59,040 bases of DNA, filler included, from Circinaria calcarea (GCA_051942165.1; 4 parts of 4 records of this genome joined end to end with filler, not necessarily neighbours in it), one strand, 5' to 3'; positions 14,751-56,709 are shown, counted from the whole stretch's first letter. A program made the numbers and translations. The notes: generated from the letters alone by a model not told the origin.

Positions 14751-14850
14751 NNNNNNNNNNNNNNNNNNNNNNNNNNNNNNNNNNNNNNNNNNNNTTAATT
14801 AATTAANNNNNNNNNNNNNNNNNNNNNNNNNNNNNNNNNNNNNNNNNNNN
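14751..14850. other. Assembly gap with artificial six-frame-stop linker
   Basis: 44 N + TTAATTAATTAA + 44 N; identical construct at three places. Confidence 0.97.
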
Positions 14851-15224: not shown

Positions 15225-16610
15225 ATGTCCTCTCCATCTGCCTCTGCCTCTGCCTCTGCCTTCCTCCAGTTCTGGTGGACCGACAGAACCCGCAACACCT
15301 TTCTCTCCTGTCTCCCTCGAGAAGATCTCGCCTCCCTACGCCTGGCCTGTCATGATTTCGGGATCCGGGTGGCGCCGCTGCTCTTCGAGGAGATTACCGT
15401 CCACTTCCGCTCCAGTACTTTCACCAAGCCTGCTCGCATGGCGGCTTTGGATAGGATAGGACAGCACGTTCGGACACTGACGTTCACTATGGCTCATGGA
15501 CCGGAGACCTTCCTCCCTCCGTTATTAGACTCGATCACTGGCGAGGAAGTCACGTTCGAGTATGAGCCGTACTGCAATACAAGTCGGACTTCAGCAGCAC
15601 GACTTAGTGCGCCTACGTACGGTAGCTGGGGAATGACCGATCTGTTGGTGAAACAATATCCGCCACTCTTCCACTCCGCAGCAAATGTACCCTCGTTCAT
15701 ACGGGCCTTCACCGCCGTTAAGAACCTAAAACATCTCAAGATATCCTGTCCGGGGCAAGAACCAGCACAACGGTTTCGAAGGGGTATCGTGGACTACGCT
15801 TTGATATCTCTCCGGATAGCAGTTGAAAGGAGTGGACTATCGGCACTCGACACCCTATCGCTTGTCGAGATACATCCTGGCGCGGTCCTCTATCTCAACC
15901 CTATCATGGGTTTCGGAGCATTGCCAAACTCTGCCAAACGCTGGAAGCAGATCCGAAAACTAGCGATCCACATGGACACCATCCCCTTTGGTGCCAGACA
16001 CGCAATCGACCACCTCAAGCTCCTCCACTCCTACCTCCAGAACTTCTCCTCCTCGCTCCGGCGACTGATCTTCCGGTGGAACGGCGACAAAGGTCCCTTC
16101 CCACTCTCCCTCGGTTCCGAACCCTCCCTCCAGGAACGGAGTCCTCCTCTCGCCTGCCCGCGCCGCTGTCATCTCGCCCTGCGTCCTCTCAGTTTCGCGC
16201 GCCTGCGCTACATGGAAGTCGAGAACGCACTGCTGGACGCGTCGCAGGTTTCGAGTTTCATCACCACGCACCGGCGCTCGATATGTGAGTTTAACTTCGA
16301 GGACTCGGATCTGCGGTCCGGGACGTGGGACGAGGCCCTGGCGCCGCTGACGCGCATCAGCGGCAGCGAGAAGTGGAAGGAGAAGTCGGAGGAGGTCATG
16401 GACGTGCCGCTCATCCTGAGTCCGGTGGGCATGGAGGAAGGGCAGATGGAGAAGGTGTGGCGCGAGTATGCGACAACGAGGGTACGGAGTCCTTATCCGT
16501 CGTCGAGAGGCGGGTGGCAGAAGGCGAGTGCGAAGGGGAGGGGGTTGTTCTGGGGCACGCCGGAGCATCATATGAGGAAGTTCTTTCGGAGCTCGGCTTT
16601 TTGGCGGTAA
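15225..16610 (+). CDS. Conserved fungal hypothetical protein (461 aa) with F-box-like N-terminus
   Basis: Single-exon ORF. FLSCLPREDLASLRLACHDF...PLLFEEI resembles an F-box helix, followed by LRR-like LxxLxI segments. Confidence 0.75.
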   Translation: MSSPSASASASAFLQFWWTDRTRNTFLSCLPREDLASLRLACHDFGIRVAPLLFEEITVHFRSSTFTKPARMAALDRIGQHVRTLTFTMAHGPETFLPPLLDSITGEEVTFEYEPYCNTSRTSAARLSAPTYGSWGMTDLLVKQYPPLFHSAANVPSFIRAFTAVKNLKHLKISCPGQEPAQRFRRGIVDYALISLRIAVERSGLSALDTLSLVEIHPGAVLYLNPIMGFGALPNSAKRWKQIRKLAIHMDTIPFGARHAIDHLKLLHSYLQNFSSSLRRLIFRWNGDKGPFPLSLGSEPSLQERSPPLACPRRCHLALRPLSFARLRYMEVENALLDASQVSSFITTHRRSICEFNFEDSDLRSGTWDEALAPLTRISGSEKWKEKSEEVMDVPLILSPVGMEEGQMEKVWREYATTRVRSPYPSSRGGWQKASAKGRGLFWGTPEHHMRKFFRSSAFWR

Positions 16611-29528: not shown

Positions 29529-29628
29529 NNNNNNNNNNNNNNNNNNNNNNNNNNNNNNNNNNNNNNNNNNNNTTAATTAATTAANNNNNNNNNNNNNNNN
29601 NNNNNNNNNNNNNNNNNNNNNNNNNNNN
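29529..29628. other. Assembly gap with artificial six-frame-stop linker
   Basis: 44 N + TTAATTAATTAA + 44 N. Confidence 0.97.
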
Positions 29629-29780
29629 TGTATTTGGGCGTTTAGATCTGCAAGAGCTGAATCAATTGAGGCCATATTGGTGGAGTAATGATTTTTTGAA
29701 ATGGGGGGTGGAATGCGGGGAAAATGCGGCATCGGTCCGGATGCGGCATAGCTCAGGGATATCTGGTAACGTTGTAACGT
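29629..29780 (-). mobile_element. 5' end of a pogo/Fot1-like DNA transposon, transposase start truncated by gap
   Basis: ATG at 29675 reads MASIDSALADLNAQI, resembling fungal Fot1/pogo transposase N-termini. Upstream lies an ACGT-starting terminus with an internal direct repeat (ATGCCGCA twice), as in Tan1/Fot1-type TIRs. Only 15 codons visible. Confidence 0.5.
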
Positions 29781-30779
29781 TGAAGGGGGGGAAGGTATAT
29801 TACGCAGAATCCTCACGATTTTCAAATGGGATTTGCTGTGTCTGTGGTGAAGGATTTTATAATTACCATACTGCGCTTTATTTTCCCGCACATTCCAACC
29901 ACGGCACTTCCTAGTGACCTGCCTCACTTGTTCCGTTGGTGTTTAGACAGTTGTGAGATGTAGAATTGCGAAAGAAAGATTTTTTCGGTGTTTGGTAGCC
30001 GCAAGCGATATTTTGTCGTCATATGGATCTCTGGTTTTTCAACAACTGGAACCCTTTTTGGATTTTTTTTAAAACGTATCTTTCCGATATTCAATACGAT
30101 ATAATCATTGCGCATGTAAACGGATTATTTGCAAATAGAGTCTAATTTGTGGTTTTTTTAAAAAAAATCGCTGATTCAAGCGCCTCAAACTGAGCTCTCA
30201 TTTGTTAAGAAAAAAAGAAAAAAAAAGGCACACAGTATTGGTGAGTGTATCCGAAACTGTAAGCGTAAAGAGGTGGGGGGATCGGGTTTGAAGATTCCCA
30301 CGTGATCTCGGTTTTCGCTTAGGACCCTTTTTTTTCGATCTTGGCACTTATTATTTTATTAATTCCAACTTTTTACGATTTGACCCCTTTAGGCCGAAAG
30401 CTTAGCGGGCATGACTAAGAAAATCTGCTAAATTTGGGTATTGCTCCAGACCTTTCCGCTGCTATGAGAATACCACATCGGTGATATACTATGGGTCAAG
30501 CTTTGATTTGACGCAAAGAAATTCAATTGGTGCGTGCCCTGCCACGAAGATTGCACATACACTTCTGTTTTGCAGCCTCGTCCTTTGACCAAAATCTAGA
30601 TTACTAGCTAACTTAGTATAACTTCCCAGGCATCTCCTGAAGTACTTCCGCACCTATCCTGATAGCCTAACCAAGAAGACGACTCGAAAACTCCCACTCT
30701 CAACCTAGCCGACTCTGAAATATCCCTCGCCCCAATTGCTTCGGAGGTGACCTCCATTCGGGAAACTCGAGTTGCCATC

Positions 30780-31874
30780 ATGAGTTCAGAGCTTGGCTCC
30801 GTCCTCGTTGTCGGCGGTTGCGGCTTCCTGGGCCATCATATTGTCTCTCAACTTTTGGAAAACCACGTCAAGGTCTCGGTGCTCGACCTCCGGACCACCC
30901 GTAATCGCATTGCTTCGGTGTCTTACTACGATGGAGACATCACCTCTGTCGCAGCGGTTCAGTTTGTCCTCGAGAACGTCAAACCTCAGGTCATCATTCA
31001 TACAGCTTCTCCTGTTGTAGAATCAGGAAACACCGCTCTCTATTATAAGGTCAACGTCGAAGGAACACGGAATCTGCTGGAATGTGCTGGCAAGTTCGGG
31101 GGTGTCAGGGCATTTGTCTACACATCCAGCGCCTCTGTTGTTGATGACTCTGTTAGCGATCTCATAGATGTCGATGAACGCTTACCGATTCTACGAAGCC
31201 CACAGCAGAGGGAAATCTACTCACTCACCAAGGGTATCGCTGAGGACATTGTCTTGGCCGCCAACCGCAAGTACGACAGCATGTTAACGGTCTCGATACG
31301 CCCAGCCGGCATCTTCGGAGAGGGGGATAATCAAATGCTACCGCCAATGCTGAATGCGTATGAGACAGGCAAGACCAAGTTTCAGCTGGGAAATAACACA
31401 AACCTTTTCGACTTCTCGTATGTGGGAAACGTGGCACACGCGCACATACTTGCTGCAAGGGAGCTGATACGAGCCTCCATGAGATCGGTACCCCTTCCAG
31501 CTCACAAAGTTGTAGAAGGTGAAGCGTTTTTCGTTACGAACGACGAACCCTACCGCTTCTGGGACTTCACGCGTGCTCTCTGGCGCGCTGCAGGCGACAA
31601 GACCAAGCCGGAGGCTGTATGGGTCATACCAAAGCAGTTGGGTTTATTCCTTGCCACTATGATAGAATGGTTGGTCTGGCTGTTCACGTTTGGAAGAAAG
31701 GAGCCAAGCTTAACGAGGAAGAAGGTCAGGTTCAGCTGCATGAACAGGACCTTCCGCATTGACAAGATCAAAAGTAGGCTGGGTTATAAACCTCTCATCA
31801 ACATGAGCGAGGCTGTCGAGAGGAGTGTGCAATGGTTCGAAAGGGAGAAGTCGAAAGACAAAAAGGCGAAATGA
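30780..31874 (+). CDS. ERG26: Sterol-4-alpha-carboxylate 3-dehydrogenase (decarboxylating), ERG26/NSDHL family, copy A
   Basis: Intronless 364 aa. VVGGCGFLG Rossmann motif, IHTASP, VNVEGT, YTSSASV, YSLTK (YxxxK), IRPAGIFGEGD, FQLGNNTNLFDFSYVGNVAHAHILAA, GEAFF, RLGY.P; C-terminal KKAK ER-retrieval signal. Confidence 0.9.
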   Translation: MSSELGSVLVVGGCGFLGHHIVSQLLENHVKVSVLDLRTTRNRIASVSYYDGDITSVAAVQFVLENVKPQVIIHTASPVVESGNTALYYKVNVEGTRNLLECAGKFGGVRAFVYTSSASVVDDSVSDLIDVDERLPILRSPQQREIYSLTKGIAEDIVLAANRKYDSMLTVSIRPAGIFGEGDNQMLPPMLNAYETGKTKFQLGNNTNLFDFSYVGNVAHAHILAARELIRASMRSVPLPAHKVVEGEAFFVTNDEPYRFWDFTRALWRAAGDKTKPEAVWVIPKQLGLFLATMIEWLVWLFTFGRKEPSLTRKKVRFSCMNRTFRIDKIKSRLGYKPLINMSEAVERSVQWFEREKSKDKKAK

Positions 31875-33585
31875 AAATAATCATCCCCAGTAGCGGACAA
31901 TAGAGCTCTATAAAGCCAATGTTAGCGGTGGTTATCCCCAGGCCGGACAGGCGTACCTGAAAACAGTGCGATGACCATAGGGCCGGCAGCGTTTCCAAGA
32001 ACGTACACAGATAATACAAATGAGGCGAGGGCTAGGCTGGTGGATCCGAACTCGGTCATGAGCTGGGGCACGCTGGGAGCAAACAATGAGGAGGCGAGTC
32101 ATCTGTCATTTTAAATCAGTATATCGACAGTGAGTGTGTGGTATTGAGTCCCGTACATAGGTGATTAATGTCATGGCTGCAAAGATCGCGATCAGGAGCC
32201 ATTTTTCTCTGGCTTCCAGTTGAGCGCTATGTCTGGGTCTCAGGGGCCGTTGAAATCCACGGTGTCAAAATCGGGAACCTCCAGTGCGTATGGATAACCA
32301 AGCGCAGCCTTTCTGTCACACTGCATGTCGTTTCTGTACTGTATCTATGCCTGAGACTATGCTGTAAGATAGTTGGAGGAAACAGTGTTTTTGAAATCAA
32401 TCCAAATTTGTTCTTCTTTCCCGAATCATCTGGGCCTTCGAACGGTTGCAATTGGTGCTTTGGTTGCTCAGATAAGCGGGATTGTTCGTAAAGCCAGCCC
32501 TCAAACAGCTTAATCGAAGTATTCTGGAAGAGCAGGTACCGAGCTGTCGAGCCAGAGGAGTAACATTATCCAAAGGCATATGCCGGGAGCAGCGACGATG
32601 GCCAAATTACTGGCGAGTGAGCGGGGGACTTCCCAGAGCCTCGGAGCAGACATCACGCCTTCGATCGAGACCTTCGGGACACAGAAGCGAAATGTACAGA
32701 GTAAGAGAACCGTATCAGCGTGAGGAATAGCGGCAGTCACCACTTGCACAGCGCCAAATTGAACCCTCTCAAAACTCAGGACATGGCGTGTCAATGGAGA
32801 AAGGGAAACGCGGGGCCACCACTATGACCCATATGCGTTTTGCCACAAATGGGAGACAATGCCTGTGTACGGTGGGAGGAAGGCTAATGACGCAACGCCA
32901 TGGTAAATCTGGGAATGATCCGAGCGGCCACTAGCGGCCGTTACGCGTTGAACCCAATTTTAGTGATAGCCCCTCCTGGTTTCGATTGCCACTACAACTG
33001 TGGGGCTAGTCCAGTCACATATGCAGCTGCAGCAAGGGTATTCGCATTTGGGACTTTAGGGCATACGTAATAGAGCTAAACTTTAGGGTGGAAGATCGGC
33101 TTGGCTAATGCGTTTAACGCTCCTTTCATGGCGGAAGTGGGGTATCGGATGAAAATACCTCAGCCCTTCTTTCCCCCTTGGGCCCGGGGATAGTGCTCCT
33201 TTGGATCTTATGCGAGTGCGGTGAGCTAGGCACAGCAAGGGAGAGAAAGTTCGGAGAAGAGGCTAGACCGTGCGTACACAAAACCCTACACGCAAGGCAT
33301 CACCGACTCCAGCCGGCCAGATGATGGGATTATCGAGACCTTTCCGGACAATATGCCTTGACCAAAGTTTCATACTGTCCGAAGCTGCCGTGCATGCTTG
33401 GAGCGGGTGTTAAGCCAGGGTTTCCGAAGCTCCATCGTGGGAGCCCGATCTCAGTGGGTGCGCCCGGCGAGCTATAATGCTCCCAGCAATTCGCCTGAAT
33501 AGGATCTTTTCAACAGATAAATGTATTTATCAATATCTTGATTTGATCTTAAGACGGAATAAGAATACTTAGTAAAGTAGCAGAT

Positions 33586-35708
33586 ATGATTCGATATCCG
33601 ATCTTGTCAAGCTTTGTTATTGATGTGCTTTATTCCGGACCACGGTACCTTTTTCTTATTTTAATCCTCTGCACACTATGGTGCTGTGCCAGATCTTACT
33701 TTCGTCGACCGGTAACTTCTACGAATTCATTGGTGTTTTATACGTCGTCTTGTACCTGAGTGCTAATCTCTATAGAGGGGCATTCCCATTATAAGTTACT
33801 CGATATTTGGGGAATGGCTGAGTGGCTTCTACTTCCTCTTTCGCGGCTGCCACATCATCACTCAACACTATGTGCTGAATCCACACAAACCTGTCTCTAA
33901 CGTTCTCAAGGCGAATACTGATGTCGTTGTAGCACAAAGACATTGCATATGCCGTTCCTACGCCGGATAGCTACCTTGTTATGATCTCGAGCAGCAGCCA
34001 TATCAAAGAGCTCAATGCCGCACCTGAAGAAAGACTATCACTTCGTGCGGCAGTAGAGGAGGTTCGCTGCTTCTCATTGTAATAATACTTTGACGGTTAT
34101 GTTGACACAATGAAAGGTATTTCAGTACGAGTATACCTTCAAACTCTTCCCGCGGCAACTACAGCTAGATCAGCCTGCCGGCTCATCGTTTGCTCGCATT
34201 ATTGGGTCTCTTCTACCGCAGTACTTCGCGAAGATACAACCTACAGTCCTCTCAAAGATAGGCGTAGCTTTGGCTGAGGAGATAGAGAGTCAATTGCAAA
34301 CCGATGGTGCGCAGCGTTCATTTATATCCTCGCACAGGGCTAAACAGTTTACAAGGGTGGAGCTGCGTGCCAGTCTATAATATGTTTAAAAGGATATGGG
34401 GGAAGACCAATAGTGTAGCTATGCTTGGAGAGAAAATCTGTGAGGTCTACGGTCCAAGAGGGGTACTTAAGCTGACTTCACGAGAAGCAAACAATTCTAT
34501 GGCAATAGATGCGGCAATACAATATCCCCAAGATATGGTAACTGCAGGAGAGCTTGTGAAGCACGTACCAGCATGGCTTGCGCCGTATGTCATCAAAAAG
34601 TATCTACCCGTTACGTCAAGCTAATTTTCTTAGGGCGCTAGCATCCTTCGCGACGAGAGATCAAGGTGCTGCAAAGACCTTTGTGGACGCCGTTACGCCG
34701 ATTATTGAGGAGAGACTTAAAAGCTCTACTGCCCAATCCAGACCTGAATCTAAGAACGTACGTGGAAGTATTGATATACATCGATATGAGACTATGCGCC
34801 TGATCACCTCTATAGTTCGATGCGATTCAATGGCTAATTGACACATCGCCAAAAAAACATCCGTGGGACATCCAAAGGTTTCAACGAGAAATTCTTGGTA
34901 TGTGGAGTGCCTCGAGCTTTTCACCCCCTCCTGTGAGTGAACCCCATGGGGATGATCGCTAGCCGATTCTGATATTCACGGGCCCAGGTACTGACAAACT
35001 CTTTCTACGATTTATGCCTTCGGCCAGAATACATCAAGCCGCTTCGGGAGGAGGCTGAAAATTTCTTAAAGTCAGATTACGATGATACCGGAGATGATAT
35101 GATGCCCCTGATGGACAGCTTTCTCAGGGAGTCTGCTCGTCTGAATCCTCTCGACAGCAGTAAGTTACGTCTTTGGTCTCGGAACTCTGCTCTACCCAAT
35201 TAATGTGCTTATAGTTTCGGTGCGGCGGAAAGCCACTGTTCCCTTCACGTTCTCTGACGGCATATACATACCGAAAGGTAGCACACTGTGCGTTCCCCAA
35301 CGAGCGATGATGCAACACGAGCAAGACCATCCGTCACCATCCGAGTTCCATGGGTTCCGTTTCACTGCCAGCCATGGAATGCCCGAATATGGAGGCCAGA
35401 TCAAGTTGACGGATGCGAATATTACCTTTCCGATATGGGGACTAGGGAAGCGGCTATGGTGCGTAACTGCCCTGTAGAGCATCACCTAACTGGTTGAATC
35501 ACTAATCCCGTCATCGCGAATTACCAGCCCCGGCAGATTTTACACCTCGATCCTATTCAAAATGATCTTTGCGCTGATTCTGTCACGGTACGACTTCAAG
35601 CTTGCTAACCCTCAAGCATCCCGTACATTCGCATTTCGGACCGCATTGGTACCGCGTTCATCTAACAGAGTTCTCTTCCGGAGGCGTAGTGATTTGCCCT
35701 TTATCTGA
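33586..35708 (+). CDS. Cytochrome P450 monooxygenase A (~10 introns)
   Basis: N-terminal TM (YLFLILILCTLWCC), DAIQWLID, LYDLCLRPEYIKPLREE, MDSFLRESARLNP (ExxR), PFTFSDG, FHGFRF, heme motif WGLGKRL-C-PGRF with the Cys codon split by intron 35459-35527; stop 35706-35708. One donor (GTGCTG, ~33872) is weak. Confidence 0.85.
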
Positions 35709-35919
35709 ATGTTAGAAGCTTATAGCTACTTAGAATGGGAGAGCCCTGGGTGAAGCAAGTAGACAAAGCCAGCTGTTCTTAACGGCTCAAGGGGTGGTCC
35801 ACTGGTCTCTGAGTAGGCCGTGGTGGAGCTCTATCAAAGTAGAATCCGATTCATTATTCTAACCGCAAGATAGACTAAGATAGATGAAATTGAAGAAAAT
35901 TGTGCGCTCGCTTCAGCTT

Positions 35920-37050
35920 TTAAGTCTTTCCCTTGCTCCTTAGATTCACTGATTTCTGCTCCATAGCCCACTCAACCCCCTTCCTTATACCCCCATCAAT
36001 ATCCTGGATTGGCACATACCCAAGTCTCTCCTTAGCTTTCTGAATGGAAAATGTCCGCGTCGAGCACACGTACTCTATCCGGTCTCGGGTAAAAATGTAA
36101 GGTTGCTTAGTCCCCAAGGTAAAGACCCAAAATAGCCAATCCGTTGTACTTGCCAAAGCCAAAGCCACCTTGGCGGGAATCACCCACACCTGATCTTTTG
36201 TTGTTTTATCCCCAGCGGCACTCCAAATCTTTCGGACAAAATCCCACATTGGAAGAGGAGCGCCGTCGGTAATGAAGAAAGCCTCTCCATCTACCTTGGG
36301 CATATTAGGGTCTACTGTCCCAGCTAACAATGCCTTGGCAGCCAGGACGTGGGCTGAGGCAGCGTTTCCGGCATAGCACCAGTCCACAAGGTTTTGGTTA
36401 TCACCAAACTGAACGCGTGCTCCAGCTGGCTTCTCTAACGTCTCAAGAGCGCTGCTGATCAATTGCATGTCTCTTTCTCCGTAAACGCCGCAGGGTCTAA
36501 TGCTAGCAGTTCGAAAACCAGCTCCATTATCAGCTGAAGGGTTGTTGGCCGCGAGGACGAGGGTTTCGGCAATAGCCTTTGACTTGGTATACGAGTCTGC
36601 CTTAGACGAAGCGTCAAGGATGGACCGGCTCTCATCAACGTTGACGTACTCTTTGCCTGTCACAACTGAGGTAGATGATGTGAAGACAAAGGCGAGAACC
36701 GAAGGAGTTTCCGACGCGCATGCGAGGAGGTTTGCTGTGCCGTCGATGTTGACATTATGATGGATCAAACTACTGGCGGACGAGCTGAAGGCTGTCGGAG
36801 AAGCGGTGTGGATGATGACGCGAGGCTGGATCTTGGCCAGCATTGAGCTCACGCTCTGTCGATCGGTAATATCCACCGCATGATATGACACTCCAGGCAG
36901 GCGATTGCGGGTGGGATTGCGGCTGAAAACCGCGATGGATGTGCAGTCAGGGTCTTCGAGGAGCGAGCAGACAATGTGGAAGCCAATGAACCCACAGCCG
37001 CCGACAACTACGACAGGGCCCAGGGTCTTCGATGGATGTGAAGTGGACAT
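35920..37050 (-). CDS. Divergent ERG26/NSDHL-like 3-beta-hydroxysteroid dehydrogenase/decarboxylase, copy B
   Basis: Intronless 376 aa. VVGGCGFIG, IHTASP, VNIDGT, FTSSTSV, YTKSK, IRPCGVYGERD, QFGDNQNLVDWCYAGNAASAHVLAA, DGEAFFI, RLGY.P. Confidence 0.9.
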   Translation of the reverse strand: MSTSHPSKTLGPVVVVGGCGFIGFHIVCSLLEDPDCTSIAVFSRNPTRNRLPGVSYHAVDITDRQSVSSMLAKIQPRVIIHTASPTAFSSSASSLIHHNVNIDGTANLLACASETPSVLAFVFTSSTSVVTGKEYVNVDESRSILDASSKADSYTKSKAIAETLVLAANNPSADNGAGFRTASIRPCGVYGERDMQLISSALETLEKPAGARVQFGDNQNLVDWCYAGNAASAHVLAAKALLAGTVDPNMPKVDGEAFFITDGAPLPMWDFVRKIWSAAGDKTTKDQVWVIPAKVALALASTTDWLFWVFTLGTKQPYIFTRDRIEYVCSTRTFSIQKAKERLGYVPIQDIDGGIRKGVEWAMEQKSVNLRSKGKT

Positions 37051-37772
37051 CGTAGCTCCCAGAGAGGGTTAGATTCAGCTCTGAGAAGAGGGCAACCTGG
37101 AAGATGGTGGCAACAAAGACCCGGACGAACGAATGACACAGCGATCGGAGGGATCAAGAATCGACGAGGCCAACCGGGGAAATGTGAAGGGGAATATGCA
37201 AGAGCTGCATGTTGGTCTGGAAAAGTCTCCCAGCTCATCTCATAAGTTCCGTGTTCCACACGGCGCAGGATAACAAGTCAACTGCCTTGATTGGTAGGGC
37301 AAGCTTCACCCACATTAAATCAGCACTACGCATCCCGAACCACAACTTAGTAACTGTCTTGCAGCAAACTGTGCCATGTAGGTGCGTATTAGAGTCATCA
37401 CAAAGGTTTAGATCCTCCGTCCTTGATACAGGACCTTGACAGCTCCGGTCGACCGTAGCGTTGATCTTGGGTTACACCGCCGCCGTTGGGAAGCTGCAAA
37501 CCTTATGGTACTGCCACGGGTCCACCCGATCCGTCAAGGTACATGCTGCAGCCTCGGCCTAGTCGATCCATCTTATCGTTCCATTCACAGTACAGTATGT
37601 TTTCCCCGCTCAGAGAAGGCTACTGCGGCCATGGGCTCTGGCGTTACATATCTCTATCTCAATCTGCTTGTTGCTTAACTTCAATTGGTCCTGACCCCCC
37701 GACCCCCCTCCAACATCCTGTCATTTGATTCCCGAAACATTTACGCACCGGCAACCGCTCTAGAAGCGTGTT

Positions 37773-37967
37773 TACTACGGTGCCAGGCATAATGATTAAT
37801 AGCGCTGCAGATCTTACAGGGGTAAATCTCTTGCCATTCTATTTAGCCGCTATATTGACCTGTATGTCAAGATAGACAGATAACGGTACAATTTCATTAA
37901 CTATATAAAAGCAGCAATGCCAAGCCAGCCAAGGCGCTATCAATTAATTACGCCTGGCACCGTAGTA
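37773..37967. mobile_element. MITE, Tc1/mariner-like, 195 bp
   Basis: Terminal inverted repeats TACTACGGTGCCAGGCATAATGATTAATAGCGC and GCGCTATCAATTAATTACGCCTGGCACCGTAGTA with TA ends; no coding capacity. Confidence 0.8.
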
Positions 37968-38364
37968 CACAGATAGTAGACAGAGATTCTTCGAGAACCA
38001 TTTGCGCGCGTGCTCCCATCTCGAGTCTTCACCGTTTGCTCCTTGCATTTTCTTGGCAATAAACACTGATCCTTCGAGGATCAGTGTTTATTGATTTGCA
38101 GTCAAGCCATGGCACAGCAGCAGTATTACTCTATCCAAGTTAACACATGCGTAGCATGTGTTGGCCCCCGTCAGCCGCTACCGTACAGTAGCTGCCTCGT
38201 TGCCCCACCAAGTATATCGTTTACGAAAAGAAGGTATTGGAGTTTTGAAAATACCATCTTCTCTGCAGAGACACATTCTTCATCCTTCCTACCATTTGAA
38301 TCCTCCTGAGGTCTCTGCTAGGTATAGTGAGAAGAGTATCTTCATTATCGCTTACTTGGAAGAT

Positions 38365-40516
38365 ATGACAATGATTGAAGCTATCTATAATTCTTTCGTC
38401 GCTTATAATTACATCGTACTTGCTGCTATCGGCATCACATTCACTCTCCTTGTGATTTGGTTTGATAGACAAGTTGGAGCTTTTCCAGTACCTCCGGTTT
38501 GTAAATCTCGCCTGGGCCCACATCAACTCGTCTATTCTAACACTGTTTAAATCAGACTAATGCTACGATACCGAGTCTCTCTGCTTCACGTTCAGGCCGA
38601 TGGATAGAAAGTATTAAATACCTTTTCGAGGGCACCGAGAAGATACTCCAGGGTTACGTGAGTTCCTGGTGAAGGAGCAATTGAATCGCATCAAGACTTA
38701 TCCATCTTTTGCAGAGACCTGGAGAGCCCTATGTCGTCGCAACCCCAAAGAATTACTGCATCTTTGTCTCATCCAAGAAACATATGGTACAGCTCGGTGA
38801 AGCGCCCGAGCTATCGCAGCGCGCAGCTTATGATGATGTTAGTCCGAGCTGGAAGCCTACATATCGCCGTTCGCTGCTAATAATGGATTAACAGCTTCTC
38901 GGATTGGAAGAAACAGTTATTCAACTTGAGAATCCTAGGATGGAAGAGCAAACTACAGCAAGCCGTGGGCTTCAAGCTCGAGTTCTCCAAATGACCACAT
39001 CGTTGCGGCTACCATTGCTTCGACCAGCTTTAGAGAAGCTGTTCGCAGAGTTCTTCACTACAGAGTTGAAAGGGTTGAAGGAGAACGACGGTATGTATTG
39101 CTTATTAACAGTAAGTTGATCTATATCATCGATATTGACTCTTTCCAGGTTGGGTATCCGTACAAGTTGCTCCCGTAATCCAGAAAGCAGTCGATAAAAT
39201 GAATTGCTTGATATTCTTCGGCGAAAGACTGTGTAAGAGTAGTGGAGTTAGGCAACATTTCCCTCCATAGCTAACCATCCACAGCAGAGGAGCCTGGGTT
39301 TGAGAGTGCGTTGGCTACATTTTCCATGGACATAATTTACTCCGGCGAAGCAAAGCAAATGCTGCCAACTTGGATGATTTCGTGAGCTCAAATTGACAAG
39401 CCTCTCAAGTCACATGCTGAAGAACGTAGGGTTTTCCATGCTCTTGTCACAAAGCGGAATCATGCTATGAACACGCTCGTAAAACATCTACTGCCGGAGG
39501 TGACGCGTTGTCAAACCCAAAATGGAAAGGGTCCGGGCAAGCACGAAGATGCTACGATGGTTAATCAATCCTATGGCTCGCTCAGAGTGTGACTAACGAG
39601 GTCAGCTCACCGTTCTTGAGCGGATCGTACGCATGGCCGAAGGTAAGAGTTATTGGCCACCGAACAACATTATTCGAAGTATCCTTGGGTTGTGGTTTGC
39701 GTCGGCTCATCAACTTTGGATGGTATGAACTTAACCAGTTGTTGGTAGATTCACACTAATATCAGGCTCAGACCATCGTCAACAATATCCACGAACTTTG
39801 CCTCCATCCCGAGTATATTGAAATCCTCAGAGATGAGATTAGAAAGCAGCCAGCCTTGGATTTTAATAATCCCAATAGTCTCCCAGTACTCGATGGATTT
39901 ATGAGGGAGACCAATCGCCTGAATGCGTTCGATACGAGTAAGTATCTTTAGAAATGATGTAGGTTGACTCATTAAGTGGTGCTGATTTGTTCCGTATAGT
40001 TGGAGCGAGAAGGAAAGTAATGAGACCCTTTACCTTTTCCGATGGAGGACCGCATGTTCCTGTTGGAAACATAGTTGGGTTCCCGCAATACGGCATCTTA
40101 TACGATGAAAAGAATTATCCTGATCCGCTCAAGTTCAACGGCTTTCGCTTTTGTGCTGATACGTCCAACTCCGGATCCGCCCCGAAGGGCGGTATACAGA
40201 TTCCGAAATCAATTCGATATACCGATGTTTCGGAAGTATATACAATCTGGGGGTTTGGCTCGTGGGCATGGTAAGTCCTTGAAAGCGTCTCTTCTTTGCT
40301 ATATGTCTTTCGATAAACATTGCTGATATATTGACTTCTAGCCCTGGGAGGTACTATGCTTCATATATTATGAAGTTGATTCTGGTGTATCTTCTGATAA
40401 ATTACGACTTTAAGCTTGCAGACAAAAATGCCTCCCTGAAGTACAAATGGCGTTCATTTCGGCTCCCGCGAGAGGGAACTCATTTTCTTTTCCGCAAAAG
40501 GGTTCAGAAGGCTTAG
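38365..40516 (+). CDS. Cytochrome P450 monooxygenase B (~10 introns)
   Basis: TM YIVLAAIGITFTLLVIWF; I-helix LGLWFASAHQ; IHELCLHPEYIEILRDEI; LDGFMRETNRLN (ExxR); RRKVMRPFTFSDG; DPLKFNGFRF; heme WGFGSWA-C-PGRY with Cys codon split by intron 40271-40341. Confidence 0.87.
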
Positions 40517-40770
40517 AAGCAGTGAGGAGTGATTCGCCGTCATGATGGTACCTCTTTAGAAAATCGTATTCCTTACCGCTTTATATCCTACAGTGTTCAC
40601 CACCGACTTAGAAGCTTTTGAATCTTGTAATCTTACAAAATAATAACAGAAATAGTCGGAATCACTCACAGTTGCTTCATCAAGGTCCTCTCGGTAAGAA
40701 TTGACATCAAGATTGAAACATTTTGCCAAAGGCTTCGAGCCTGTGATATAGGCCATTCGCCAATCAGAAG

Positions 40771-41121
40771 CAAGGCTTCCAATAATGCAGCCGTGCAGAG
40801 GACTGTACTGCACTATACTATCAATGCAGTGCAAGGGCTTTGCACTGTATTGACAGTGCGCACTGGTAGTATAGTCAATCTCGTTAAGCAAGGGTAATAG
40901 CCTCGGTCATCGGTTATCTAAAGTTCCGGGATTAAAAAGGGGGACCTTGGCTAGCAGCCTTATAAGACTACATGTAGGGCTACACGACGGAGTAGCCTGC
41001 ACTGCACCGATAGTACAGGCTTGGCAATGCACACTGCACCAATGGCATGGGCTTGGCAATGCACACTGCCATCGTGAAATGCCAAGCCGCACTGCACCTG
41101 CTGCATTATTGGAAGCCCTTG
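40771..41121. mobile_element. MITE, hAT-like, 351 bp
   Basis: TIRs CAAGGCTTCCAATAATGCAGCCGTGCAG and CTGCACCTGCTGCATTATTGGAAGCCCTTG. Flanking 8-mers ATCAGAAG (40763-40770) and ATTAGAGG (41122-41129) match at 6/8, like a decayed TSD. Internal (A)CTGCAC subterminal repeats. Confidence 0.75.
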
Positions 41122-41947
41122 ATTAGAGGATCCTCTGCCGTGTGATTAGGTTTACTGCGCCGCTTCGGTCATCCGGATATTTACTAGTGTACATTAATTT
41201 TCATTGTGAAGAAAGAGGAGCATTACAGGGAGGGCACTACGTTTTCAAAAGCAAAGTCGGAAATAGCAGCAAAAATATATATGTATGATCTATAGTCTGC
41301 CTATGGGAGAATACTCGGGGGATAACTGAGATATTGAATGCCAAGCGCGCCCAAATTAGCGTCGTTTCCCTGCCTCTTTCTCCACACGAGCCAATCATAA
41401 CATTCGTCTTATTTTCGCGCTTTCGGCGCAGCCGGTTTTAATATGATTGCGTACTGCATGTCAGCGTCGCATGACCGCGGCGTAGACAAAGGAGTGGCCT
41501 TTTGGTCAAGACGCGAAGGAGTGGGTGGCTCTGTCATGACATCTAATTTGGAAAGATGCATTAAACCTCTTCCATAATTCAAGGTGGCAGAGCTTGGAGA
41601 TGCATGATAGAAAGAAACAAGCGGACCAATAGAAAGAGAAGAGAACAATATGTAAAGGTCCGGAATAAGCTTGCCTGGAAACCCCTGCGCCGGAGCTTTC
41701 GCTTTTAGGCTATGAAACCCAGAAAACATGTGCCACATAGGAAACTTTTGGTTTCAGCAAGGGTGTACGAGGAATACTGCTCCACAGCCTCCTTGGTAGT
41801 TCGGCGATTATTGTTACATAAATCGTGATTGCTCCATGTTTACTATATTTTATACCATATCGTCGTTCTTGCGGACGCGTTCTATTTCCTGAGTATTAAT
41901 AGTCCATATAAATTTTCCACCATTTATACTGGTTGATCTGAACAGCC

Positions 41948-43484
41948 ATGTCTTCATCCTCCACGCCCGACATGAGCTGGCTTGAAAATATTCCAGGGTT
42001 TCCACCGCCACCAGGCACTGTTCCTAACTTCGTCAATCCGTACAGCCAGGGTCCGATTTTAATTATTGTAGGATCTATCCTGATTGCTATTATGATGGTA
42101 TTTTTTATAGTCAGAGTATACACAAAAGCATTCATTCAACGCAGAGCCTCTTGGGACGATTGTACGTTATATATGTTGCCGATTACTCTGACCTCATTGG
42201 CTAATGCATTACTCAGTAACATGCACACTCGCAGCTGTATGTATCTTTGCCGCCCCGAGTGCTGTTTGAAAAGGTGCATAATATGATGCAGTTTGGAGCA
42301 ATTGTATACTTTATCAACTGCATTTATGGTTAGTCAAACATCCTTTGAGCTTCAAGGCGAATGCTGAACATGAATGCCACAGCTGTCAGGGGGAAGGTAG
42401 GCATTCACCAGTGGAATGTCAGGGCAGCGGACCTGACGAGTAATGATTATATTGTGGTGAGTCAAAGGCGGTGAACTACATCGTCAAAGAAAGAAGTTAT
42501 ACTAAATGGTATACAATAAAACAGCCACTCTATCTTTCCACTGTCCTGATATCACCAATACTGCTTTTCACGAAGCTTACCTTCTTCCTCCTGTATATAC
42601 AATTGTTCAAGCCGGATAAATGGCTCAGGTATTGTATCTATGGCGGTGGAATCTTCACAGTGGGGTTTTATCTGAGCGTCGGTATTGCGCAATTTGTTTT
42701 CACAACTCCGGCTCCCGGAAAGACATTCTTGGAAGCGTATTCAAAGGAGAACGCGGACAGGGCAAGGGACTGTTCGGTCCCGTTGTCTGCTGTCGGTTGT
42801 GCGATCGATTTATACATTCTCTTATTGCCAATCTCTGCTGTTTGGAAGCTTCAGATGGCGATGCGACGGAAAATTGGTCTCGTCTTGATCTTCATGACAG
42901 GTACCGTGTATGGATCTCTCGACTTTCGAACGAAGTAAAGCTAGGTGCTGACCTTACTCAACAGCGCAGTTGTTGCTTCTATCCTGAGCCTCTACTACCG
43001 TATCATTCTAAACCGGAACACGGATGAGAACACTCCAGCGGAGAGCGGCGTCGCAGTATCGGATACCACCTGGTTAATTCTACCAATTCTAGCTACCGCG
43101 TGAGTCTACCCCCCTTAAGCTATCTTTCAATGACTAAGTCTATGATAAAGGCTGGTTGAGGTGTGTGTGGGTGTCATGGTCTCTTGCATGCCACAGCTTG
43201 CCTCCTTCTTCCGTCACCACAAAACTTCGTTCCTCAGCTTCTATTCTCGAATCTTGAAGTATTATCCTTCCAAGTCATTTACTGTGGCAAACCGACAATC
43301 ACCTGAACCCGATGGTATCCACCTCGAGAGCCAATTGCTAGGCACGGCTAAACACGGAGAGGGAAAGTTCCTCAACACCAGGGATATGAACGAGATAGAC
43401 TGGCTGCGTCAAGTCAAAGATCAAGGGAAGGAGGCTCACAGCGAGGTCATGGACTCCTCGGAGCCGAGGGTAGAAACGGCGTGA
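41948..43484 (+). CDS. PTH11/SAT4-like fungal rhodopsin-domain integral membrane protein (no CFEM), multi-exon
   Basis: PPPPGTVPNFVNP; TM1 then RVYTK...WDD; G.HQWNV; KLTFFLLYIQLF; DLYILLLPISAVWKLQM..RRKIGL..IF; VEVCVGVMVSCMP. Confidence 0.85.
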
Positions 43485-43711
43485 ACAGTGGTTCTTATCT
43501 AGAGCGCTGAAAGGACTAGAAGATTTTATGGTCGATTTCAATCACCACGAGTGACTGTAAAGGTGTATATAAAGGGTGTGGAATCCCCCCATGTATCCTA
43601 TTGAGTAGATGCGTAGCCAATTTTATCGGCCTCCTCTATTTGACCATATCAACTATACAGAGCTACGTAGAATTTCTTTCCCAAGAGAATGCTAATTTTT
43701 CAGTTATTGAC

Positions 43712-44296
43712 ATGCCGTTATTCAGCGTCTGCATCATTGTGCCCAAATCTTCGGTGAAATCAGTGAAGAAAGCCCTAGAGGCGCAAGGGAACTTAGACAA
43801 AGCCCGAAAGATTGAAAGTATCAGCAACGCAGAGTGTTTACCTGGCTATATCACCGAAACTGGCCACCAGCATGATGGCGAATCGTTCCTTGTGCGCACA
43901 ACGAAGACCGTTGAAGTTACAGATGAGACTGCTGCTCAAGCGATGCTTGACTCCGACAGAGACTCCCTAGCAAGAGAGTTAGGGATTGAGCTGTATGCTC
44001 CAATGGTCTATTTCGCCATCTACCCTTCCGAGATAAGTTCGACACTATCTGCTCTCGCAAGGCGGGATACGCCTGCAAAAGGTCTCCTCGCTCAATCAAT
44101 CACCCACTGGCTCCTCGATCTCCCTTCTGAACTCCGTTCCTCCCTTCCAATTTCCGTCACCCAGCTTGTCTCCCTAACGACCGCCTCTTATACCATCTAC
44201 CCGCCCCTTCTCCTCCTTCCACCCACCGCCTTCACCCGTCCGCCCTGGCCCAATCTACTAGACACGATTCTGAAGCCCCACCTCCCAGCTCTCTAC
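43712..44296 (+). CDS. tRNA wybutosine-synthesis protein TYW2/TRM12-like, N-terminal part, truncated by gap
   Basis: IVPKSSVKSVKKALE...LDK..KI N-terminus and YTIYPPLLLLP..AF...PW segment resemble Pezizomycotina TYW2. The methyltransferase-like domain is not visible. Confidence 0.5.
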
Positions 44297-44396
44297 NNNN
44301 NNNNNNNNNNNNNNNNNNNNNNNNNNNNNNNNNNNNNNNNTTAATTAATTAANNNNNNNNNNNNNNNNNNNNNNNNNNNNNNNNNNNNNNNNNNNN
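44297..44396. other. Assembly gap with artificial six-frame-stop linker
   Basis: 44 N + TTAATTAATTAA + 44 N. Confidence 0.97.
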
Positions 44397-46659
44397 ACAA
44401 ATGCCAAACCGCGAAATAGTAGCAGAAATGTTCCGTTATCCCCCGAAGGCGTCAAGGAAGTCAGCTGCCAAACGTCTTACCATCTTCTCACGTCCTTCAA
44501 AAAGGCATGCCTTAAGGCTCCTCCTCTGAAGTGGCGATAGGGTCCGGCTGCAAAGAGGGGAGTCCCATGCTGCCCATTAGCGTCCAAGGATTTGGTAGCG
44601 ACATAGTCTCAGGGGCTTTAGCTGGTAGAAGTCTGTGAGGCTGCCTGAAATCCTTCCCTTCTTATCAGATGGTGGTAGTTGGAGTCCTCCACTATCTGCT
44701 TGCTATAGGACGACAAGACTTGAGATATACAGATGGAAACAGAAACTGATACCGAACCCAACGCCTGCACCATGGAACACAGCCGTCTATTGTTGTAAAA
44801 TATCATGAAACGTTTAAGATGCCGCTGTCAGCCGTTCTTACTCCTTAACCATTGCGGCGGATGCGTCATACGACCCCAAAGAAGTCGTATCGTAGATGAG
44901 GATCTCTGTGGTCCACTGATGCCAACCAGACACCATCTTTCAAGATCCAACACCCAAGATCTGTTGTAATTCGCGAGGAACGTGATGTGCATACGGCGTC
45001 GAGCAAACGTCCCGTACCGCTTACCTCACCTTCCTTTCATCGATCTTCAAAATGTCGGACCTTGAAACAGAATGACACCACACTGTTGTTGATGGTCAAT
45101 ATCCTTGGTTTCGACATTTACTAGCTGAAGAATAATCATATTCCAAGGTGCTTCAATGCCTGAGCACAAGAGGCAGGAGTAATATACCGATACAACACCA
45201 CAATACCAGATGCCAACAATGGTCCTAACGGCGCATATAAGTATCGTTGCTCATCAAGCGGAATCTGTGGACAGGAGGAACAGTTGACGGCGTTGAAAAG
45301 GTCGAATGCTAATTTAGATTGCATATCGAGCAATTGCGTTTCTATGCCGACCAATAGGATTACTTGCTATTCGCCGGCGAAGAATAAAAAAGGTGAATGC
45401 AGCTGATGTCCGAGCTAAGGATTTCCGCCACGAGGGATACGGAGACGGAAGGCAACTCGATGTATTGGCTGTGCTTCATGCGCAAAAATCCGGCTTTCCC
45501 GTGCCTTTCAATTCGCAATACTCTGTGCGTCTGGACCACCCTGGACGTAACTCCGAAAAGGGCATGTCGGTGCGATGGTGGACATGACCTCGAGGCCTTC
45601 GGACATTTGGGTGGAGGAATCTCATGTTGGGCCTGGCTAGGACGACAGCATGCAGGGCATAGGCACCGTGACGGCTCGGATGGCTGCAGAAACTCCTATC
45701 AGATGGTGCTCGCCTCAAGGAATAATCTTCTGCATTGACCTTTGGCTGAATACTCCGTACAGTAGTTGGAAGGATGGGCACGAGTCGATAGGTGGTGGTA
45801 GTGGTAAATTTCTGAAGTCGCGGGAAGGAGCGCGTCTCGCAGCAGACTCCAGTATTAGTATTAATCTCCTCCTCAGCGTTATGATTTTTGTAATTGTCAT
45901 GGCAGAGGGTTGCATTCAAACCTACGCTGTGACTCCTCGTTAACAGTTTTCAGTCTGCTGCTCTTTGTACAGTTGCCTACTCGGATCAATCAATGATAGA
46001 TAAATCCTTCGTATTCTCTTCCAGCAAAACAGCTTCTATTATCCCTCGTATGGTACCGTTTTGTCAACACGCGAAAACCGGTCCATACCTGATTGTGCCC
46101 AACACGCTCTATTGTGCACCATCATTAGTCCTGTGCTTCTGATTAATTCTGTCACCGTCGTTGTTATTTGTTTGCTTGATTTCACGATTATCCTATTCGG
46201 GCTCATTCAGTTTCTTTTCCCGGTAACGCGCGACGGCCCCACCAAAAATAACCAGACACGCCAGAAATCGCCACAGCAAACCGTAAGCACGAGTAGATGC
46301 TTTTTCTCACCAACCAGTTTCCGAATACTCGAGTTCATTATTGCCGTTTGCCCAGCTTTGGCTCCATCACATTTCTGCTACGGGATCCGAGATTCGTCGC
46401 GGCACCTTCTCTTTCGGGCCCGAAAATCGAGCAGAAGCAAGTAAACAAACAAACACCAAAACAGAGGTCCCAAGGCGGAAACGCACAGTAACAGCGGTAA
46501 ACGTCTTGCAGTCTCACCCGAATGACACACTGAAAAAGAACGTTTCGATCAGGGAATCGAGTCGCACTACGTTTTGTTTTAGCCTCGTATCCAACGTTGG
46601 ATCCACGAGGTAGTTCCTGTGCAAGGGTCCCGTCACAACGTTACAACAACCAACAAAAG

Positions 46660-48235
46660 ATGCCTGCGCCAGAGAACTCCACCACCGAGGGTTCGGCTTT
46701 CCCCTGGATACTAGAACACCTGCTTGCGTATCCAGGAAGCTACGAAATACCTTTACGAACCATGTACACGAATAACGTCTTGGCCCAATCGAATCGACCA
46801 AATACGCCATCGCTGTCCAGCGGCTCGAGTCCAAATAGTTCTCCTGTACAACCAGATTCCCCACACTTTGTTCCTCCACCGAACCACCGACCATTCACAA
46901 CCCAGGCAGCAACAGATCACTTCAAATCGTGTCTAATGGAGCAGATATCATATTTGCCGAGCCAGCCCTTCTCCCTACCACCATCATTCATCACCTCTTT
47001 CGTCCGCCGCTGCTTTACAGAAGACCTATGCCTTGTCGACTTCACCCAGGCTTTGACGGCGCTGGATTACCTCAAAGACCTCGAAAACCGACGAAAGCGT
47101 GAACTCTCTGCAGCCCTGCATCGCCTTGGCATTGATAAGGAGACATTCGGTAAAGATCGTGAGAAACTAAATGAACGTTATCCAGGGTTGACGGAGTGGG
47201 CCCTGAGTATGGAGGAGAAGGAGAAAAGAGTAGAAGCCTTGTACACTCAAGTATACATTGGTCTTCGCCGTTGGGTAGGTCCCTGAAAACTTAGCTATCC
47301 CTCTCGCACTCATCGGATTAACTGACGTATCCTTCTCATCATAGACGCTGATCAACGAAATGCGCCTTGAGCCTTTTAATAAGGCCAACTGTGTTGCCAT
47401 GCTCAATACCCTCTATCCGCCATCTACGCCTTGTCCGCCAACCCAGCAATTGACATCAACAATCCTAGCTTCCCAACGGAGTGCATTCTTCCGCTACATT
47501 CAAGCGGTAGAGAAGAACGGCAAGAACGTACTGACGAACCTTGAGAATCAAAGCCGTCGGGCCCACGATGAGAATGGCTGGTCAGTTGTACGGGAAATCG
47601 TAGATAAGTATCTGAGAACCGCGAATAGCGTGATAGAGGAGTGCTTCGCGATTACGGTGGACATATTTAAGAAGGAAATTGCAGAAGTGAGGAAAGCGGA
47701 GAGGAGAGCCGATTCGGGCATCAGCTTTGCAACGTCACGGAGCAGTAGCGACAGTTTACTCAAAACTAGCAACAAATCTCTCAACAAGCCCCTTCCATCA
47801 TCCCCAAGCCCAACCGTTGAGCCATCCGTCAAGAAAGTAGGAAGTACGCTCGAGCGAATCACGCGCGAGATCCGGAAGATGAAGTCACGCAGTGGCGAGA
47901 GCAAAGAACAAGATAGCAAAGAACGCGAGAGCAAGCAACGGGACCCTAAGCCCGAATCTGAGGAGCGGTCGTTGAAGAAAATGAAATCGACAAGTGCTCT
48001 TAGACGAGCTGGGTCTTCCAAATCGCTGAGTGGTAAGCATTCTCGAGGCGGGAGCGGGGATCGCGCCGCGTTGTATGAGATCGGCGAGGAGCAGAGGGAG
48101 CGGATGATCAGGGAGGCCAAGGCGAAGCGGGAACGGGAGATACAAGAGGATAACCGAGCCCCTGGACCCAACGGTGAAGGTAGAAAAGTGGTTTGGGGTG
48201 ATGTATTACGGGGCCCTCGGGGCCAAACGACTTGA
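46660..48235 (+). CDS. Conserved fungal hypothetical protein, 2 exons
   Basis: MPAPENS..FPWILEHLLAYPGSYEIPLRTMY...QPFSLPPSFITSFVRRCF..VDFTQALTALDYLKDLE..YIGLRRW | intron 47275-47344 | TLINEMRLEPFNKANCVAMLNTLYPP; frame joins cleanly. Confidence 0.8.
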
Positions 48236-54936: not shown

Positions 54937-56387
54937 TCATTTCCTCCTCTTCATTGTCTTAACGCACATCTCGAGCAAGCCGTCCTTGGCTTCCGAGTCG
55001 GGGAAACTACTGATGGCATGCACGGCCTTGTCGGCGTAATCTTGGGCTAGGGCTCGGGTTTGCTCGATGCCGGAACTGCGGGAGACGAGGTCACGGGCCT
55101 GGAATTGATCACAAATTATTAGCAAGGATGCCTATTGGAGGGTCTAGATGAAAGTGAAAGAACTCAACTAACCCTTTGCACATCACCCTTACCCGAAAAT
55201 TTCCTTCCCACTAAGGCTCCCAACTCGGCATTATCCTTCCATGCGAACAGTAATGGCGCAGTTGCAAGTCCCAACTCCAGATCCGCCCCGGCCGGTTTTC
55301 CCAACTCTACCCGGCTGATGGTATAATCTAACATGTCATCCACAAGCTGGAATGCCAATCCTAGATTCTTCCCATACGCGTAGGCTGCCTCAACCACTTG
55401 GGGGGAGCTTTGACCTAGCAACGCGGCCGCACGACAGGATTTGCTAATCAAGCTCGCGGACTTGAGGTAGGTTTTCTGTAGGTAGTAGGATATGGTATCG
55501 TCGGTCCAGACGGGGTTAGGTTCATCTAAAGCCGTGTTCTTCAATTGCATGAATTCGCCTTCTACGAGGTTTGCGATTACGGTCGCGAGGAGCTCGATAA
55601 CCTCTGCATCTCGTAGTCGAGCCAGAGCCACAGAGGCGCGGCCAAGAAGGAAGTCCCCGGCCAAGACAGCCATTTTGTTACCAAAGGCAATGTTGGCGGA
55701 CGGGGCGGAGCGGCGGGTAGAGGAAGTGTCGATGACATCGTCATGGAGAAGAGAGGCGGTGTGAATCAGTTCGGTAATTTCTGCGAGCCGTCGTTGTGAG
55801 GGAAGTATATCTGGACTTTGAGGGCTGTAGGCTGCGTCAAGAGGGGAGGATGCGGTCAACGGATCCGTGAGGGGGGAAGGATTGACATCTGCGAGGATGG
55901 TAGACGGGGTAATAGGACTGTTGATTGCTGGGGCAATAGGAATCGAAGGATCTCTCGCGGCTTTGGGGGTTATAGATGTCGCCCGGGACATGAGGAGGAC
56001 AAGGAGAGGGCGGATGTGTTTGCCTTCAGCTTGGGTATAGTATTTCGCTACGGTATCGAGCATAGGGTGGCCGGATCCAAGGAGCTGGCGTATGTTACCG
56101 GTGAGGAACTGCATCTCCTTTCCCACAAGCCGCAGAGGGTCCACGGAGACGCCTGCGAGCGGTCCTCCAGTTTTGCCTCCATTGCTTAAGATGGTCTGGG
56201 CGGCGGAGACGGCTTGCGCCCATGTCGATTGAGAACGCCGACGTGCAGGAGGGTATAATTTGGACGGTATTGACGAGAACGGTTGTTTAGATGGCCATGC
56301 CCGTCGGTAACAAGGGCAGAACGAGGCTTGACGTATGGAGATCAATTGATTGATAACACCGCCTTTACACAGTAAACGAGGTCTCAT
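54937..56387 (-). CDS. COQ1: Mitochondrial polyprenyl (hexa-/decaprenyl) diphosphate synthase, 2 exons
   Basis: Arg-rich presequence; GKHIRPLL; QRRLAEITELIHTASLLHDDVID (FARM); GNKMAVLAGDFLL; KTYLKSASL; GLAFQLVDDMLD (SARM); LGKPAGADL; intron 55099-55172. Confidence 0.93.
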
Positions 56388-56709
56388 TCTCTTCGGTCGA
56401 CCTCGAAGATACAGAATGCTTCGGATCTTCTCTTAGGTACCTTGAACTCCTGACTCGGTAATTGCGGAAGTGAATATAGCATCATCGTCCCCCGCCCATG
56501 TGTTCCGCAAGCTGCATCACGTTAATAATTTAAACTGCGGTGCCTGGAAAAAGTTTATGATGACCCATATACAATGATCGTCTGCAGGGATCTTGACCCG
56601 GCTGTCGGCGATTGCTCCAGCGCCAAGGCTCCCGAGTAGCTGATGAACATATCTAATAAGCTCTTATTCGTAATTAATTCACAAAGGAACAATACATTCA
56701 GTGTTTAAT

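Follow-up and report, generated by a model that had tools for sequence, protein, structure and literature searches.

A locus on a 59,040-nt stretch of DNA from Circinaria calcarea (GCA_051942165.1; hereafter the window, four contigs joined end to end) may be an accessory redox module of a lichen-type ascomycete, which would rework a 3-beta-hydroxy sterol or triterpene made by an unlinked cyclase. We hold this reading tentatively and place it slightly below an even chance. The locus consists of five genes on one ungapped stretch of the third contig, in the order Erg26-like dehydrogenase (E26a, +), cytochrome P450 (P450a, +), Erg26-like dehydrogenase (E26b, -), cytochrome P450 (P450b, +), and rhodopsin-domain membrane protein (+). 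A preliminary description, made from the sequence alone, had reported this order and these strands, which gene models and domain matches bear out, and had proposed sterol/triterpenoid tailoring. Its observations are partly confirmed and its interpretation is partly supported: recurring adjacency of the same gene families in other fungi and published precedent speak for tailoring, but the genes point to a substrate through Erg26 homology alone, and this P450 family also occurs in a nonribosomal peptide synthetase (NRPS) cluster.

All five genes have open frames with no internal stop, and the introns of the spliced genes are GT-AG in the predicted models (Table 1). In the membrane-protein gene, the PF20684 match on the largest exon scores 64 bits against a cut-off of 27, and hydropathy gives the protein seven hydrophobic segments. 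E26b and P450b are divergently transcribed. The GC content, third-position GC content (GC3) and repeat-induced point mutation (RIP) indices of the five genes match those of the window's housekeeping open reading frames (ORFs), with no sign of recent transfer or RIP.

Table 1. Features of the locus and its surroundings (positions counted from the first base of the window)
Feature	Position	Strand	Evidence
E26a, Erg26/NSDHL-like 3-beta-hydroxysteroid dehydrogenase, intronless, 364 aa	30780..31874	+	PF01073, 211 bits
P450a, 11 exons, 519 aa, intact	33586..35708	+	gene model; PF00067 on exon 10
E26b, Erg26-like paralogue, intronless, 376 aa	35920..37050	-	PF01073, 183 bits
P450b, 11 exons, 530 aa, intact	38365..40516	+	gene model
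Fungal rhodopsin-domain (PTH11/SAT4-like) membrane protein, 7 exons, 398 aa	41948..43484	+	PF20684, gene model
Decayed major facilitator superfamily (MFS) transporter fragment	about 31925..32290	-	MFS_1 profile positions 11-56, E 0.02, below curated cut-off
MITE-like candidate, 203 bp, imperfect terminal inverted repeats of about 37 bp	37769..37971	.	
Perfect 17-bp inverted repeat with 3-base loop (37-bp hairpin), about 270 bp upstream of P450b	38057..38093	.	
MITE-like candidate, 344 bp, 18-bp perfect terminal inverted repeats and nested repeats	40774..41117	.	
Probable tRNA-modification gene, 5' part, cut by contig end	43712..44296	+	weak Trm5_N, E 0.003, below cut-off
Artificial linkers, N44-12 bp-N44, all identical	14751-14850, 29529-29628, 44297-44396		

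Both Erg26-like proteins exceed the curated PF01073 cut-off of 22 bits, and the best PDB match of each is human NSDHL (6jkg), with E-values of 1e-41 for E26a and 1.5e-22 for E26b. The glycine-rich NAD motif, the catalytic Ser and YxxxK (Tyr147 and Tyr154) are intact in both, and the two proteins are 41-42% identical. E26b is nested in a paralogue clade with support of 100, outside canonical Erg26. This clade is expanded in lichen-forming fungi, forming a large radiation with more than one copy in Sticta, and the best matches of E26b (50-62% identical) come from lichen-forming ascomycetes including Lobaria, Trapelia, and Sticta. E26a may belong either with canonical-type rows or with the paralogue clades, in a comparison whose rows include no experimentally defined fungal Erg26. 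The large Erg26 tree leaves out 15 of 266 rows that were short or over-long. A metagenome scan with E26b gave nine loci (eight at 22-26% identity and one a 20-residue match), among which there is no fungal relative.

Both P450s have the heme cysteine motif, ExxR and an N-terminal membrane anchor. They are 31% identical and have 10 intron positions and phases in common, with predicted GT-AG introns of 46-71 bases. Their family is represented here by 130 relatives (14 from one set of matches and the best 120 of 146 from another, with 4 common to both), which are at most about 41% identical to the window P450s and 30-37% identical over full length. What marks the family is its I-helix. With the register of the His-Thr pair taken from an alignment to CYP51, His is present in 126 of the 127 rows (5 of 132 were short and left out of the tree), and the Thr position holds Gln in 104 rows and Thr in 10. 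P450b has His-Gln, and P450a has Phe-Ser, making it the sole row lacking the His. Absence of the I-helix threonine is associated with proton delivery assisted by the substrate or with unusual chemistry, and here it lowers the likelihood of an ordinary hydroxylase, not of P450 identity. Two members of the family, P0127 and P0151, bear the source name 'ADP-ribosylation factor protein 3', which is evidently a mis-annotation.

Stand-ins 30-37% identical to the window's P450s were used for Atlas, PDB, and fold searches. The top PDB matches of these stand-ins are CYP51 and CYP7A1, with CYP17A1 also matched, all distantly; the fold search returned only generic P450s at 14-20% identity; and the Atlas neighbours of one stand-in include a protein named LovA. 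No viral contig was found with the P450 alignment. The HelB P450s of helvolic acid biosynthesis, which we take to be CYP5081, presumably belong to another clan. The family of P450a and P450b probably belongs to the CYP54 clan, which is clade 15 of Chen et al. 2014 and takes in the CYP54, CYP68, CYP503, and CYP512 families: AN8437 of Aspergillus nidulans, a member of the same family, stands near label 15 in the machine-read text of a tree figure with jumbled columns (PMC4122930). The searched text and supplements of PMC4122930, PMC3505482 (12 of 19 files), and PMC3689640 give no CYP family number for it.

These gene families also adjoin in other fungi. Only 2 of the 130 listed P450s carry a second Pfam domain, and both times it is 3Beta_HSD. 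These two are merged Erg26-like and P450 models, KAF4631662.1 (Cudoniella acicularis, 853 aa) and KAM7196899.1 (Naviculisporaceae sp. PSN 640, 876 aa). In both, the Erg26-like part precedes the P450, the same order as E26a-P450a, and the join falls at one common position: the C-terminal helix of the Erg26 part and the anchor exon of the P450 are missing, so that the P450 part begins where exon 2 of P450a begins. This fits either neighbouring genes joined by gene prediction or a real fused transcript, and the genes would be adjacent either way. A third case is Saccharata proteae, which brings all three gene types together. There, a single 935,171-bp scaffold carries, under consecutive accessions, a P450 (KAF2088040.1) and a merged rhodopsin-domain and Erg26-like model (KAF2088041.1), whose rhodopsin part has 27% identity to that of the window. 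The Erg26 domains of the Cudoniella, Naviculisporaceae, and Saccharata loci form one supported clade. The co-location of Erg26-like genes with this P450 family, which the preliminary description had named as a check, therefore holds between families, in three fungi that belong to three other classes. As a rough, post hoc estimate that assumes copy numbers and ignores relatedness, at least three adjacent cases in about 60 genomes would arise by chance with a probability of 2e-6 to 6e-3.

Some other Erg26-like models are joined to different partners. A fourth merged model, P0286, carries an Erg26-like domain and a piece of a different P450; it was not counted, as that piece matched neither P450a nor P450b. 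P0369 combines an Erg26-like domain with a cytochrome b5 domain, and P0317 and its cluster (Cadophora, Leptodontidium), several Helotiales models of 712-742 aa, combine one with a hemerythrin domain, which makes hemerythrin a further repeated neighbour or fusion partner of an Erg26 paralogue.

A receptor-like protein in the module, both here and in Saccharata, would also suit a different purpose, i.e., detoxifying or scavenging foreign steroids or triterpenoids of plant, algal or competitor origin. The membrane protein would then be the sensor, the P450s would hydroxylate the sensed compound, and the dehydrogenases would act on C3 by oxidation or epimerisation. This would agree with the lack of any backbone gene found on the contig, with the spread of the P450 family over plant-associated and lichen fungi, and with the much expanded Erg26-like paralogues of lichen fungi. 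However, neither a hydrolase, a glycosidase nor an intact transporter was found on the contig, and we consider a detoxifying role improbable.

The trees also bear on how the pairs arose. The focused trees, of 39 and 37 rows chosen with the large trees in view, are quick trees, and were used for approximately unbiased (AU) tests of groups that had not been named in advance. E26a and E26b as sisters are rejected (p-AU 1e-4), as are P450a and P450b (p-AU 5e-10), both of which have long branches. A recent tandem duplication, of either the Erg26-like genes or the P450s, is rejected by these tests, and on this evidence each pair, of Erg26-like genes and of P450s, consists of old paralogues and did not arise by duplication on the spot. 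That all four enzymes are intact despite such long separate histories favours the tailoring module. Placing E26a as sister of the module clade (the Erg26 domains adjoining this P450 family) is not rejected (p-AU 0.35).

Several results weigh against a sterol-tailoring module. The adjacency link holds at the level of families (30-44% identity): P450a and P450b are 29-34% identical to the P450s of the adjacent pairs and are not their orthologues, a sister position to the 17-row core clade is rejected for each (p-AU 0.002 and 2e-5, respectively), E26b is rejected from the module clade, and E26a is rejected from the 8-row core of that clade (p-AU 0.023). None of 119 contigs carrying E26b relatives matches a contig of the 130 listed P450s in size, both lists being small samples; among 17 contigs of the E26a-type proteins looked up, 1 does. 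The PDB and fold matches of the stand-ins are at most 20% identical by fold search and name no substrate, and open-access full text yielded neither a characterised member of the P450 family nor evidence of a substrate. The upstream regions of the four enzyme genes have no word in common beyond what shuffled sequences give. Finally, E26a is 57-58% identical to Stictis 'erg26' and sits on a short branch beside it in the trees, so it may be a housekeeping or near-housekeeping Erg26.

In the same promoter scan, SREBP, Upc2, and AtrR patterns had no match. The position of E26a near canonical-type Erg26, the lack of orthology with the linked pairs elsewhere, the interspersed pseudogene fragment and MITE-like elements, and the missing common promoter motif would all fit an arrangement with no shared pathway, in which E26a would be the housekeeping Erg26, and the rest would come from expanded families and have gathered in a variable region. 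That explanation has to account for two Erg26-like and two same-family P450 genes alternating within 10 kb, all of them intact, and for the same families being adjacent in three other fungi. We rate it as rather improbable.

If the locus is instead a tailoring module, its enzymes could work as follows. The P450s, anchored in the endoplasmic reticulum, would oxidise the substrate, either at its A/B-ring end or at a methyl group, and the NAD(P)-dependent Erg26-like enzymes would interconvert its 3-hydroxy and 3-keto forms. If a C4 methyl had already been oxidised to an acid, CO2 would be lost (Erg26 chemistry); alternatively, an Erg26-like enzyme may act as a plain 3-keto reductase (VidM chemistry). 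P450b, with His-Gln, would probably need a hydroxyl of the substrate for proton delivery, or might carry out non-standard chemistry, for example C-C cleavage or desaturation, and P450a, whose Phe-Ser retains a side-chain hydroxyl, may be the ordinary hydroxylase. The E26a-P450a tandem and the E26b/P450b pair, with its one divergent promoter region, would be two old forms of a single Erg26-like and P450 partnership found repeatedly in Pezizomycotina. The rhodopsin-domain protein may be an accessory sensor or membrane helper, and the cluster's own MFS exporter would have decayed. Here we infer the substrate class from Erg26 homology and precedent, and we also infer the order of the reactions, the co-expression of the genes and the role of the membrane protein.

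A bolder version, which we regard as a long shot, is that an Erg26 paralogue and a Gln-type P450 form an old pair widespread in Pezizomycotina, sometimes fused, that carries out Erg25-independent sterol demethylation or cleavage and makes a steroid signal for which the linked PTH11-like protein is the receptor. If so, this would be a clustered fungal steroid-signal synthase with its receptor, and the contig would hold two generations of the pair. Should the more cautious tailoring module prove right, the pairing of an Erg26-like gene with a Gln-type P450 would offer a new handle in searches for fungal clusters that tailor steroids and triterpenes and escape signature-gene tools. Lichen fungi carry many Erg26 paralogues from which to start, and there has been little characterisation of their triterpene genes (PMC11457338). 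For an orphan P450 family whose oxygen-activation site is unusual, the pairing also provides a concrete and cheap test.

The window's contigs are 14,750, 14,678, 14,668, and 14,644 bp long, in descending order of size, and identical artificial linkers join them. In the protein collection, too, E26b is assigned to a contig of 14,668 bp. The linkers at 29529 and 44297 are artificial, so genes across them are not genomic neighbours, and anything that spans one of the three linkers is a concatenation artefact. The preliminary description had treated 29529 as a gap that long reads might close; it is a join between contigs. The locus contig, 29629-44296, is filled mostly by the five genes. On its right, the probable tRNA-modification gene starts 228 bases past the rhodopsin-domain gene and likely marks the border of the locus; we presume that it is TYW2. 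On its left, the contig begins with 29629, and only 1.15 kb separate this end from E26a. The locus is thus open on that side, and the absence of a backbone gene is unproven.

The earlier claim that no backbone enzyme is present stands as far as the domain scans go, which found no polyketide synthase (PKS), NRPS or cyclase domain in 26 ORFs and exons across the window or in 9 further stretches of the locus contig, but it is untenable as a statement about the cluster. The 1.15-kb left flank of E26a has no coding match, and no tRNA genes were found.

Between E26a and P450a lies an MFS-transporter fragment that the preliminary description had missed. In a six-frame view, it corresponds to the first two helices, with an in-frame stop, a frameshift and a degenerate splice donor, and it has no continuation, running into the 3' end of E26a. 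We take it to be of the DHA1 type. A transporter relic fits a cluster.

This relic, whose decay suggests a bigger cluster that is eroding, and the nearby contig end are also what one would expect if the contig were the right arm of a larger conventional cluster, with the backbone gene (NRPS-like, PKS or triterpene cyclase) beyond the left end. The Erg26-like proteins would then act as general carbonyl reductases or dehydrogenases, and the product need not be a sterol. In favour of this explanation, small cyclases that domain searches do not see exist (PMC11109268). It also draws on A. nidulans, where AN8437 and a second P450, AN8438, lie within the AN8433-AN8441 NRPS cluster together with a tyrosinase and a zinc-cluster regulator (PMC7842363). 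The genes of that cluster are co-induced by salicylate (10.1101/2020.07.23.217166, PMC7842363), and in the available table none of AN8432, AN8434-AN8439, AN8441, and AN8442 is annotated as a sterol dehydrogenase (AN8440 is absent from it). The P450 family is therefore not confined to a sterol setting, and among the results that speak against the tailoring module these A. nidulans observations weigh most. Against a larger cluster are the left flank, which lacks a coding match, and the merged models elsewhere, which tie the P450 family specifically to Erg26-like genes. On balance, we think a larger conventional cluster unlikely, though a serious contender.

The preliminary description also saw miniature inverted-repeat transposable elements (MITEs) interspersed among the genes. 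Terminal inverted repeats are indeed present in two elements, and there is a 37-bp hairpin, but the 203-bp and 344-bp elements are each single-copy within the window, and neither has a target-site duplication in its 12-base flanks.

The other contigs carry genes for a Ran-binding nucleoporin, a carbon-nitrogen hydrolase, a UDP-glucose:glycoprotein glucosyltransferase, a polyprenyl synthetase, and Vma12. The polyprenyl synthetase gene, at 55164-56432 (-) between those for the glucosyltransferase and Vma12, is presumably the housekeeping Coq1, which it resembles, and not a backbone gene for the locus. There are also long open frames with no Pfam match (1534, 479, 250, and 296 aa), located at 9253-13857 (+), 15171-16610 (+), and 46534-48235 (+).

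Among the known systems closest to the locus is the Erg26/NSDHL sterol-4-alpha-carboxylate 3-dehydrogenase itself, which has its family, cofactor motif and catalytic residues in common with E26a and E26b. E26a is near canonical-type sequences, of which it may be an orthologue, and E26b sits in a paralogue clade apart from them. The AN8433 cluster of A. nidulans resembles the locus in placing the same P450 family beside a second P450, but has an NRPS, a tyrosinase and a regulator, and is described as still to be studied (PMC7842363). No description of a module of Erg26 paralogue, Gln-type P450 and rhodopsin-domain protein was found in open-access full text, a scope that takes in few of the subscription journals in which much work on fungal steroid chemistry appears.

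The helvolic acid (hel) cluster of Aspergillus fumigatus was the analogy drawn by the preliminary description, since a P450 and a dehydrogenase there remove the C4 methyl group without Erg25 (PMC5696383). That chemistry is one possibility for the locus, and the analogy holds to this extent, but it is loose. The hel cluster includes an oxidosqualene cyclase of its own together with two acyltransferases and a ketosteroid dehydrogenase, none of which is on the locus contig, and its HelC is given as a short-chain dehydrogenase/reductase rather than an Erg26 homologue (PMC5696383). Given that the cyclase, acyltransferases and ketosteroid dehydrogenase are absent from the contig, membership of the hel cluster is ruled out.

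The closest published precedents are the steroid clusters for demethoxyviridin (vid) and viridiol (vir). The vid cluster of Nodulisporium sp. has 19 genes, including six P450s and no cyclase, and its VidM is a homologue of C-3 sterol dehydrogenase/C-4 decarboxylase that reduces a 3-keto to a 3-hydroxy group (PMC5943271). The vir clusters of Hymenoscyphus were missed by antiSMASH because they lack a cyclase (PMC8254937; also PMC8403587). A cluster that draws on the ergosterol pathway with no cyclase of its own and escapes gene cluster finders, as the preliminary description had envisaged, is thus a published kind (PMC5943271, PMC8254937). A cyclase-less steroid cluster with an Erg26-like gene has been in print since 2018, which limits how surprising the present locus can be.

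The locus would work like a vid or vir cluster but is not itself one. The Baeyer-Villiger monooxygenase, esterase, glyoxalase-like and Bet v1-like proteins and two transporters of vid (PMC5943271) are all missing from the 14,668-bp contig, which rules out membership, and the H. fraxineus representative of the P450 family (HYFRA_00011496) has a locus number distant from that of vir3 (HYFRA_T00008109). Unlike vid, the contig has two Erg26-like genes, two P450s of the Gln-type family and a rhodopsin-domain gene. What the locus has in common with vid and vir is several P450s together with an Erg26-type homologue; no cyclase was seen on the contig, whose left end is open, and in vid and vir the substrate of such a set of genes comes from the ergosterol pathway.

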